Assembly (NCBI GenBank): GCA_963727485.1
Contig: CAVSGM010000002.1
Span: 800,001-864,000, forward strand
DNA length: 64,000 nt
Direction of reading: 5' to 3'
From: an uncultured delta proteobacterium
GTDB taxonomy: Bacteria > Myxococcota > Myxococcia > SLRQ01
The notes under the pieces are model-generated. The model did not search any database and was not told the origin of the DNA. It was given only the letters and a program-made list of their open reading frames with translations. Positions within the stretch are counted from its first letter, which is position 1; every line of letters begins with the position of its first letter. Positions 59,898 to 61,343 of the stretch are shown here, one piece after another. The position numbers and the translations under genes are program-made.

Positions 59898-61086
59898 AAT
59901 CACCGAGCGCGATTCGGGATCGAACGCGCGTAGGCCGTTGAAAAATCGGGGCCTTCCTAAGATGGTCAGGTTGGACACAAGACCACAGGAGAGACCCCGA
60001 TGGACGCCAGCATACCTCGAATGAACCGCCGGGCAAGGAGGCGCTTCGTCGCCATCGGCCGCCGTAGCCGAGACCGCAGGGCCCACCTGCGCTTTCTCGT
60101 CATCGCGCACCTGGCCGCCGGCCGTTCCATGGCCGAGGCCGCGCGCTTTGCCATGGTCGCCCCGGCGACCGTGAGCCGCGTCGCGAGGCGCTTCCAGGAG
60201 GGCGGGCAGCTTGCCCTCTTCGACGCGCGCGCCGGCAACGGGCCGCGGAAGGTCGACCCTGCGTTTCTTAGAGACCTCGCACGGGTGCTCCGCGGTACGC
60301 CCCAGGACCACGGTTTCGCCCGCCCCACCTGGACCCGGGAGTTGCTGCGCGAGGTGATGGTCGACGAGGGTCACCCTCGGGTCGCGGCATGCACCATCGG
60401 ACGGGCGCTGCGTCGGCTCGGGGCACGTCTCGGCCGTCCGAAGCCCGTGGTTCTCTGCCCCTGGCCGAGACGAAAGCGCCTGGCACGAGTCGCAGAGATC
60501 CGGCGCTTGGCCGCGAGCTCCACGGAGGCCGAGCCCGTGTACTTCAGCGACGAGGTGGACATCCACCTCAACCCGCACATCGGGCAGGACTGGATGTTGC
60601 CAGGCCAGCAGCGCCTCGTGGTCACGCCGGGCCAGAACAAGAAACGCTACCTCGCCGGCGCCCTCCCCGCTGGCACCCGGAAGATGGTGTGGGTGGCCGG
60701 AGACCAGAAGGCGAGCTGGCTCTTCTGCCAGCTCCTGTGGCGCCTGGTTGCAGCGCACCCGAAGGCGAAGCGGATCCACCTGATCCTGGACAACTACATC
60801 ATCCACAAGAGCAAGGTGACCCAGCGGGTGCTGGCCAGCCTCGGCGACCGGGTGCAGCTGCACTTCCTGCCGCCGTACTGCCCCCAGGAGAACCGGATCG
60901 AACGAGTGTGGCAGGACCTGCACGCGTCGGTGACTCGGAACCACCGGTGCCGGTCGATCACCGAGCTGATGGCGCGCGCGGACGACTTCCTGCATGCCTA
61001 CAACCGTCGTCATGAGAGTGACTTCAAACCATCGCTGCTTCGAGCGGCCGCGTGATCGCGATATTCCAGAATCGCGATCGGTGATT
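59898..61086 (+). mobile_element. IS630 family insertion sequence with TA target duplication
   Basis: TIRs aatcaccgagcgcgattc (59898-59915) and gaatcgcgatcggtgatt (61069-61086), 17/18 match; TA at 59896-59897 and 61087-61088. Confidence 0.92.
60000..61055 (+). CDS. IS630 family transposase
   Basis: HTH region, WTRELL, YFSDE, LILDNYIIHKS, FLPPYCPQENRIERVW. Confidence 0.94.
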   Translation: MDASIPRMNRRARRRFVAIGRRSRDRRAHLRFLVIAHLAAGRSMAEAARFAMVAPATVSRVARRFQEGGQLALFDARAGNGPRKVDPAFLRDLARVLRGTPQDHGFARPTWTRELLREVMVDEGHPRVAACTIGRALRRLGARLGRPKPVVLCPWPRRKRLARVAEIRRLAASSTEAEPVYFSDEVDIHLNPHIGQDWMLPGQQRLVVTPGQNKKRYLAGALPAGTRKMVWVAGDQKASWLFCQLLWRLVAAHPKAKRIHLILDNYIIHKSKVTQRVLASLGDRVQLHFLPPYCPQENRIERVWQDLHASVTRNHRCRSITELMARADDFLHAYNRRHESDFKPSLLRAAA

Positions 61087-61343
61087 TAGCAGCAGAAGCA
61101 GCGCGGCGGGGGATTGCAGTTGTCAATGGTGATGCACGGGTCGAGTGGGCCCGTGCCCTTGTGACAACCGCCACCGGGTCCGTAGACCGTCGTGCACCCG
61201 TAGCCGGTCTCGGCGCAGACTGTACAGGCGCAGCCACCGTTCTGGGCCGTCGCGGGTGCGGGGCGCACGGCAAGGCTGAGCACGAGGCCAAGGCCGAAGC
61301 CGACGAGAAGGCCCGATACGGTTCGAGTCCCTTTGCGTTCCAC
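61086..61343 (-). CDS. Small secreted cysteine-rich peptide (85 aa precursor; 10 Cys in a 52-aa mature part)
   Basis: GGGGGA RBS, GTG at 61343; signal ...GLVLSLAVRPAPATA; mature QNGGCACTVCAETGYGCTTVYGPGGGCHKGTGPLDPCITIDNCNPPPRCFCC. Confidence 0.7.
   Translation of the reverse strand: MERKGTRTVSGLLVGFGLGLVLSLAVRPAPATAQNGGCACTVCAETGYGCTTVYGPGGGCHKGTGPLDPCITIDNCNPPPRCFCC

Follow-up and report, generated by a model that had tools for sequence, protein, structure and literature searches.

A gene for a small, predicted exported, Cys-rich peptide and a tightly linked gene for a membrane-anchored protein with a TonB/TolA-type C-terminal domain form a patchily spread myxobacterial gene pair, of which the window analyzed here, a stretch of 64 000 nt (G000:C2:800001-864000) from a source genome of 5.55 Mb and 73% GC, carries one copy. 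In this copy a recent IS630 insertion has uncoupled peptide and partner, with both reading frames left intact. The cassette is real and apparently undescribed, and it is built from a known fold; a search of mostly open-access literature gave no description of such a peptide–partner pair.

The peptide gene

The peptide gene (61086..61343, minus strand) encodes 85 aa from a GTG start, with a ribosome-binding site, AGGGGG, located 7 nt 5′ of this codon (61351..61356, minus strand), and an alternative in-frame ATG at 61382 would give a 98-aa form. A first-pass annotation made from the letters of the window had described a signal peptide followed by a 52-aa mature region with 10 Cys, and the ORF, a heuristic signal-peptide call and the Cys count all agreed with that description. 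The predicted Sec signal peptide comprises 33 aa (about 61245-61343, minus strand); its n-region is basic, its h-region has a mean hydropathy of 2.46 and its cleavage motif is A-T-A. The mature peptide (61089-61244, minus strand) follows with its 10 Cys at a spacing of 1-2-6-9-9-5-5-1-0 and a net charge of −1. The GC3 of the ORF was 0.75. Signal-like ORFs with at least six Cys were rare in the source genome, with 13 listed in a genome-wide scan, several of them clearly spurious. The AF2 model of the peptide, a hairpin without helix, had a pLDDT of 44.7 and is unreliable.

Both the 85-aa and the 98-aa forms were absent from a collection of 15 billion proteins, a single-sequence search of a 5.8-billion set gave no relative of either peptide or partner, and neither of the two matched any Pfam or NCBIfam family above cut-off. 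An Atlas match for the peptide, scored at 0.80, is a lead only. At the DNA level, a sigma-70 promoter search at the locus and a plasmid match search found none, and no upstream motif common to the cassettes was evident by eye.

The peptide had also been labeled defensin-like. The CSH motif of cis-defensins is defined in spacing by a CxxxC helix together with a CxC strand, and this combination is not found in the spacing of the window peptide, so that the label, also considering the slightly negative net charge, was not supported; identity as a cis-defensin was rejected, as there is no CxxxC. The mature peptide has two GxC, as in the gamma-core motif, which is a weak feature alone. Bacterial cis-defensins, which are placed in classes I–V and include xanthusin-1 (PMC11561630), resemble the window peptide in being small, Cys-rich and myxobacterial, with a signal peptide and a GxC. 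The window peptide differs from them in having 10 Cys instead of 6–8, in lacking the CxxxC helix motif and in having a dedicated anchored partner. Metallothioneins are cytoplasmic and made without an export signal, and identity as a metallothionein was likewise rejected, in view of the signal-peptide-like N-terminus.

The anchored partner

The partner gene (59168..59890, minus strand; GC3 0.86) encodes 240 aa, arranged as about 10 cytoplasmic N-terminal residues, one TM helix, a linker of about 70 aa that is about 60% Pro, Ala, Ser and Thr, and a C-terminal domain of 136 aa with two conserved Cys (59171..59578, minus strand). The earlier suggestion of a TonB-C/AgmX-like domain was borne out by Foldseek, VIA and hhalign. 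Using the AF2 model of the domain (pLDDT 72), the first 12 Foldseek rows were all TolA/TonB-type C-terminal domains, none of which reached E 0.001, and TonB/TolA C-terminal domains made up 14 of the 15 best VIA rows, with a best Z of 7.4 (below 8) at an rmsd of 2.9 over 95 aligned residues and with identities of 4–12%. When compared using hhalign, the profile of the partner family aligned to a 73-bit NF033768 AgmX/PglI domain at 90.8% probability and E 1e-6, with both Cys aligned; in the partner-domain alignment C54 is invariant and C102 nearly so. At the 40-bit cut-off of NF033768 the partner itself gave no match, and 2 of 12 family members matched the model with a best E of 0.032, none above the cut-off. 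The domain is thus a divergent AgmX/PglI-like domain, not a filed member of NF033768.

With an N-terminal TM helix, a Pro/Ala linker and the TonB-C fold, the partner shares the anchor–linker–domain layout of TonB and TolA, from which it differs by its low identity, its conserved Cys pair and its dedicated peptide gene. An SxxxH motif in the TM helix is the mark of TonB/TolA energy transducers, and this motif was found in 0 of 13 N-termini of the partner family, a count that includes one N-terminus read out of frame; an energized TonB reading of the partner was rejected. No exbBD or tolQR motor genes were found among the 22 of 100 neighboring ORFs scanned. The partner also resembles GltG (PglI) and GltJ (AgmX) of Myxococcus gliding, being single-pass with a long linker, a TonB-like C-terminal domain and two Cys. 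In contrast to these, it scores below the NF033768 cut-off, has no FHA, zinc-finger or GYF cytoplasmic domains and lies outside any glt cluster.

The public gene call of the partner starts at an internal Met and gives 117 aa, without the TM helix. Gene callers appear to miss the cassette: the anchor is lacking from the partner record, and the protein collection does not contain the peptide. The partner gave no match in 60 relatives, a search of representatives gave only three distant matches, and a profile search among longer proteins found none. Prediction of a complex between the partner domain and the mature peptide of the window, with a score of 0.02 and a mark of 0.32, is not evidence either way.

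The IS630 insertion and the inferred empty site

The two genes are separated by an IS630-family element (59896..61088, plus strand) of 1189 bp between two TA copies (59896-59897 and 61087-61088), having inverted repeats of 27 nt that are 93% complementary and encoding a DDE_3 transposase (60000-61055, plus strand; E 1e-25). The element sits in the stop codon of the peptide gene, the third base of which comes from the IS. At the empty site reconstructed from the junctions, the peptide gene would end with an amber codon 4 nt before the partner ATG at 59890, which confirmed the spacing given in the first-pass annotation and supports its proposal of a tight two-gene unit split by the IS.

Contigs in runs X3 and X2, which may include the source sample, bridge the partner–IS and IS–peptide junctions, and the interrupted allele is therefore not an assembly quirk; no contig in 8 of 16 sequencing runs shows an IS-free junction. 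Identical IS630 ends with other flanks were present in runs X1, X2 and X4. The sequence GGTGAT within the IS end (59899..59904, minus strand) precedes the partner ATG by 8 nt and could make up for the lost coupling by serving as a ribosome-binding site for the partner.

Recurrence of the pairing

A first profile was built from the three partner domains of the source genome before any outside peptide was known, and it matched at least 10 of 400 other genomes. For five of its 12 outside matches an intact Cys peptide is encoded directly upstream, and for one a remnant with a deletion. A second profile matched at least 65 of 368 genomes of the class, source genome included, and a metagenome scan added three partner loci. 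Outside the class at least 1 of 80 genomes matched, with an ordinary AgmX/PglI domain. The large genome-wide searches scored the best 9–21 candidates per genome, and their counts are lower bounds. Thirty partner loci were examined, along with 40 more among the matches listed.

A uniform rule was applied, namely a signal-peptide ORF with at least six Cys upstream of the partner. Such an ORF was present at 9 of 16 evaluable close partner homologs besides the window (18 examined, 2 at contig ends), compared to 0 of 50 evaluable genes of two sister clades (55 examined) and 0 of 3 unplaced loci; as background, with a near-identical rule, 1 of 3248 likely genes of the source genome had such an ORF directly upstream. 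The co-occurrence of both gene types elsewhere, which the first-pass annotation had proposed as a check, was hereby found. The upstream ORFs of the nine paired loci carry 6–10 Cys, and the loci lie on contig C5 of the source genome, on two metagenome contigs and in three genera belonging to two other families. They are not independent: genus g15, together with two metagenome contigs similar to it, makes up one of the four lineages represented, alongside the source genome, G320 and G273. In a quick tree of 80 domains, made by a short search on 144 columns, the sister clades comprised 47 rows (support 97) and 8 rows (support 99), with the peptide-linked partners on three branches outside them. 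Spacing was tight also at other loci, with stop and start codons overlapping by 4–8 nt at L018, L021, L025 and L027, and with peptide and partner within about 35 nt of each other at L020, L023, L104 and L105.

At the remaining 7 of the 16 evaluable close loci there was no intact peptide gene. This group included a Cys-rich ORF without a clear start (L039), remnants (L021 and L052), intact orphan partners (L001 and L026) and partner fragments (L017 and L030). Decay could be followed in some genomes: G257 has lost by deletion a peptide interval that is present in the syntenic G273, where there is also a tandem copy in decay (72% over 92 nt), and in G235:C180 the partner is intact and the peptide internally deleted. 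These results show that the pairing recurs, with the arrangement and the partner domain being conserved and not the sequence of the window peptide.

Several related loci were observed along with these analyses. A second cassette of the source genome (G000:C5:81988-83720, or L002:3989-5721, minus strand), with a GC of 0.667 compared to 0.72 on its flanks, encodes an 8-Cys peptide, then a 176-aa TM protein without a Pfam match and then a partner of 317 aa, whose TonB-like domain has an extra Cys-rich tail. The closest paralog of the window partner (L001, G000:C2:7049-7753), which is intact and has no upstream peptide, lies at the edge of a low-GC region containing IS630 copies. The sister clade of 47 rows (L009, L013/L032, L014 and others) is a widespread Anaeromyxobacteraceae family with the same domain, in which a coupled gene, encoding an exported helical protein of about 200 aa, often lies ahead of the partner-type gene; the two members tested had no NCBIfam name. 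At L122 and L123 (G273 and G257) the partner is directly 5′ of a large membrane-anchored protein with carboxypeptidase-regulatory-like repeats (Pfam scan in G257), with an FHA sigma-54 activator beside it.

Comparison of the cassette peptides

Seven of the other peptides form a six-Cys group opening with CxxC, and three more have 8, 10 and 8 Cys at unrelated spacings. A signal-peptide-like N-terminus was seen in the window peptide and in nine other peptides. The intact peptides (n = 10) all have an even number of Cys, that is 6, 8 or 10, and net charges of −1 to −5. Together with the signal peptide, these even counts speak against metal binding, which had earlier been listed as a possible function.

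In an alignment of the window peptide with the six-Cys group, made by eye, the invariant residues are five Cys and one Val. The score of the window peptide with the six-Cys HMM (−3.5 bits) was reached by 55 of 1000 Cys-fixed shuffles in a leave-one-out comparison, and its global alignment score by 225 of 2000 shuffles, neither of which is significant. Homology of the window peptide to the other cassette peptides thus lacks statistical support at the sequence level, and homologs with conserved Cys spacing, the absence of which the first-pass annotation had set as a refutation, were not found, a result partly against its proposal. For the mature peptides of the orthologs L105 and L020, a pN of 0.046 compared to a pS of 0.224, from only 4 and 6 differences, suggests purifying rather than diversifying change, with the counts being small. 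Six-Cys peptides away from a partner gave no convincing match in 368 and 92 genomes, among the matches listed, with six weak matches (E above 0.002) to the six-Cys profile lying elsewhere than the known members. For the six-Cys type, peptides without partner were hence not found, whereas partners without intact peptide do occur.

A Ser/Thr kinase linked to the cassette in one genus

In genus g15 (Anaeromyxobacteraceae), the five best matches to one protein with a kinase–TM–Ig–beta-sandwich–Ig architecture were all found at cassette loci, in four genomes and in three gene orders relative to the cassette (upstream on the same strand, divergent, or downstream); two of the five were truncated. The metagenome locus L105 also carries a kinase of this type, and none was seen in the DNA covered at G235:C149 and L104. 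The kinase ectodomain family occurs in at least 24 of 368 Myxococcia genomes, and was not convincingly found in the source genome, nor in G320, G273, G257 or G347. Among more distant kinases with that ectodomain, 0 of 22 loci had a cassette within about 1.5 kb. The kinase link is real but lineage-limited, and it may reflect one ancestral event because the g15 genomes are kin. The ectodomain itself, a beta-rich region of 175 aa in membrane Ser/Thr kinases (L125:6886-7410, L127:4139-4660 and L130:2130-2639), had no Pfam or PDB match.

Discussion

The basis in hand for a functional assignment consists of the gene anatomy, the recurring pairing, the tight or overlapping spacing, the fold class of the partner and the kinase linkage in one genus. 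We tentatively favor a reading in which the cassette encodes an exported disulfide-containing ligand with its tethered binding protein, as ligand and co-receptor of an envelope signaling system. The peptide would be exported by Sec to the periplasm and locked by disulfides, and would there be bound by the TonB-like domain of the inner-membrane-anchored partner, presumably by beta-strand addition. TonB/TolA C-terminal domains bind short strands, as the titles of PDB matches state for the TolB N-terminus and phage g3p, and as a GltF strand is predicted to bind likewise on GltG, the peptide is therefore read as a ligand of the tethered domain. The partner, with no more than about 10 residues in the cytoplasm, cannot signal by itself, for which reason the signal would be passed on to another protein, a membrane kinase; for this output the g15 kinase is the leading candidate, and it is on this account that we give the ligand and co-receptor reading its standing. 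Speaking against it, a Sec-exported peptide would need an unexplained route across the outer membrane for cell–cell signaling, the homology of the window peptide is not significant and close loci without intact peptide are frequent (7 of 16).

The arrangement in genus g15, with a predicted exported disulfide peptide, an anchored protein devoid of cytoplasmic domains and a Ser/Thr kinase that crosses the membrane once and has an ectodomain, has an analog in plant modules of the RALF–LLG–FERONIA type, made up of a Cys-rich peptide, an anchored co-receptor and a receptor kinase. This likeness is meant as an analogy only, and the g15 kinase was not found in the source genome. By extension, and rather doubtfully, there might be a three-part myxobacterial signaling built in the manner of these plant modules, combining a lineage-specific disulfide peptide, a tethered TonB-fold co-receptor and a single-pass Ser/Thr receptor kinase, in which copies without peptide would be listeners. 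Membrane Ser/Thr kinases and AgmX/PglI-type domains are numerous in myxobacteria, and for most of them no ligand is known to us. If true, three-part signaling would provide the large family of myxobacterial Ser/Thr kinases with its first defined peptide ligands, and the TonB-C fold with a new role. As the cassette names cognate peptide–partner pairs, and in one genus a cognate kinase, binding and phosphorylation are directly testable with small synthetic or recombinant pieces.

The main alternative, somewhat unlikely in our judgment, is a toxin–immunity pair, in which an anionic, bacteriocin-like peptide toxin would be sequestered in the periplasm by the anchored partner. It has the coupled gene order from peptide to partner on its side, as well as a patchy distribution that includes decayed copies and the lack of convincing partner-less six-Cys peptides noted above. 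It keeps its weight because the orphan partners (intact at C2:7049 and in G257 and G235:C180) fit listeners and orphan immunity genes equally. However, this reading leaves the kinase link unexplained, the peptides are neutral to anionic, the sole orthologous pair appears purifying and not diversifying, the IS uncouples the putative immunity gene with the peptide left intact, and the 22 of 100 neighboring ORFs scanned included neither an exporter nor a modifying enzyme. Comparable pairs are those of class II microcins with their immunity genes, and of fulvocin C. In bacteriocin and microcin pairs, as in the cassette, the gene of a small disulfide peptide is coupled to that of a membrane protein downstream of it, and orphan second genes occur; these pairs differ from the cassette by a double-glycine leader instead of a Sec signal, by an exporter, which was not seen here, and by the lack of a TonB-like partner. 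Myxobacterial bacteriocins do exist, with fulvocins named in one report (PMC8708641). A toxin–immunity function, if true, would add a new class to the disulfide bacteriocins, one in which the immunity protein has a TonB fold.

It is unlikely, but worth weighing, that the pair is a GltF/GltG-like accessory pair, with the peptide as a fixed periplasmic subunit that connects the TonB-like domain with a further complex of the envelope, for instance a motor or an outer-membrane barrel. The relation of the partner domain to AgmX/PglI agrees with this, and so does the finding that in the sister clades the gene ahead of the partner often encodes an exported helical protein in place of the Cys-rich peptide. 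GltF, like the window peptide, is a small exported product encoded beside a protein with a TonB-like domain. The gene gltF is a small signal-peptide gene adjoining gltG (PMC3169522), and a strand of GltF is predicted by an AlphaFold model to add to the TonB-like sheet of GltG (PMC11761067). The upstream product is here, however, a peptide with 6–10 Cys and not a disordered protein, no conserved barrel or motor gene was seen next to the cassettes among the 22 of 100 neighboring ORFs scanned, SxxxH was not found in the 13 partner N-termini compared, and the peptides are freely lost or replaced.

That the window genes are chance neighbors, or that the small ORF is not a gene, is improbable; no sequence homolog of the window peptide was found, but at the reconstructed empty site the two genes would lie 4 nt apart, the small ORF has a ribosome-binding site, and nine other loci share this anatomy, compared to none of the 50 sister genes. 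Least probable of all is a metal-binding peptide controlled by the neighboring ArsR gene, as suggested by the CxC, CxxC and CC motifs of the peptide and by an ArsR–AHSA1 pair upstream on the same strand (61459-62231), since the peptide has a signal peptide, 10 of 10 intact peptides have an even Cys count, the ArsR pair is not found upstream of other cassettes and its GC3 is 0.95–0.97 compared to 0.75 for the peptide ORF.

With regard to its surroundings, the locus lies in a patch of lower GC (0.64–0.70, compared to 0.755 on its left side and 0.70 on its right) and is flanked by a convergent sigma-54 activator and the ArsR–AHSA1 pair. The sigma-54 activator is separated from the partner by a short gene-like frame (58940-59137, plus strand) that is broken by a single stop and is probably a gene remnant, and the frames of a histidine kinase and a response regulator in the window (55813-57732 and 57428-58877) appear to be shifted near 57300-57600.
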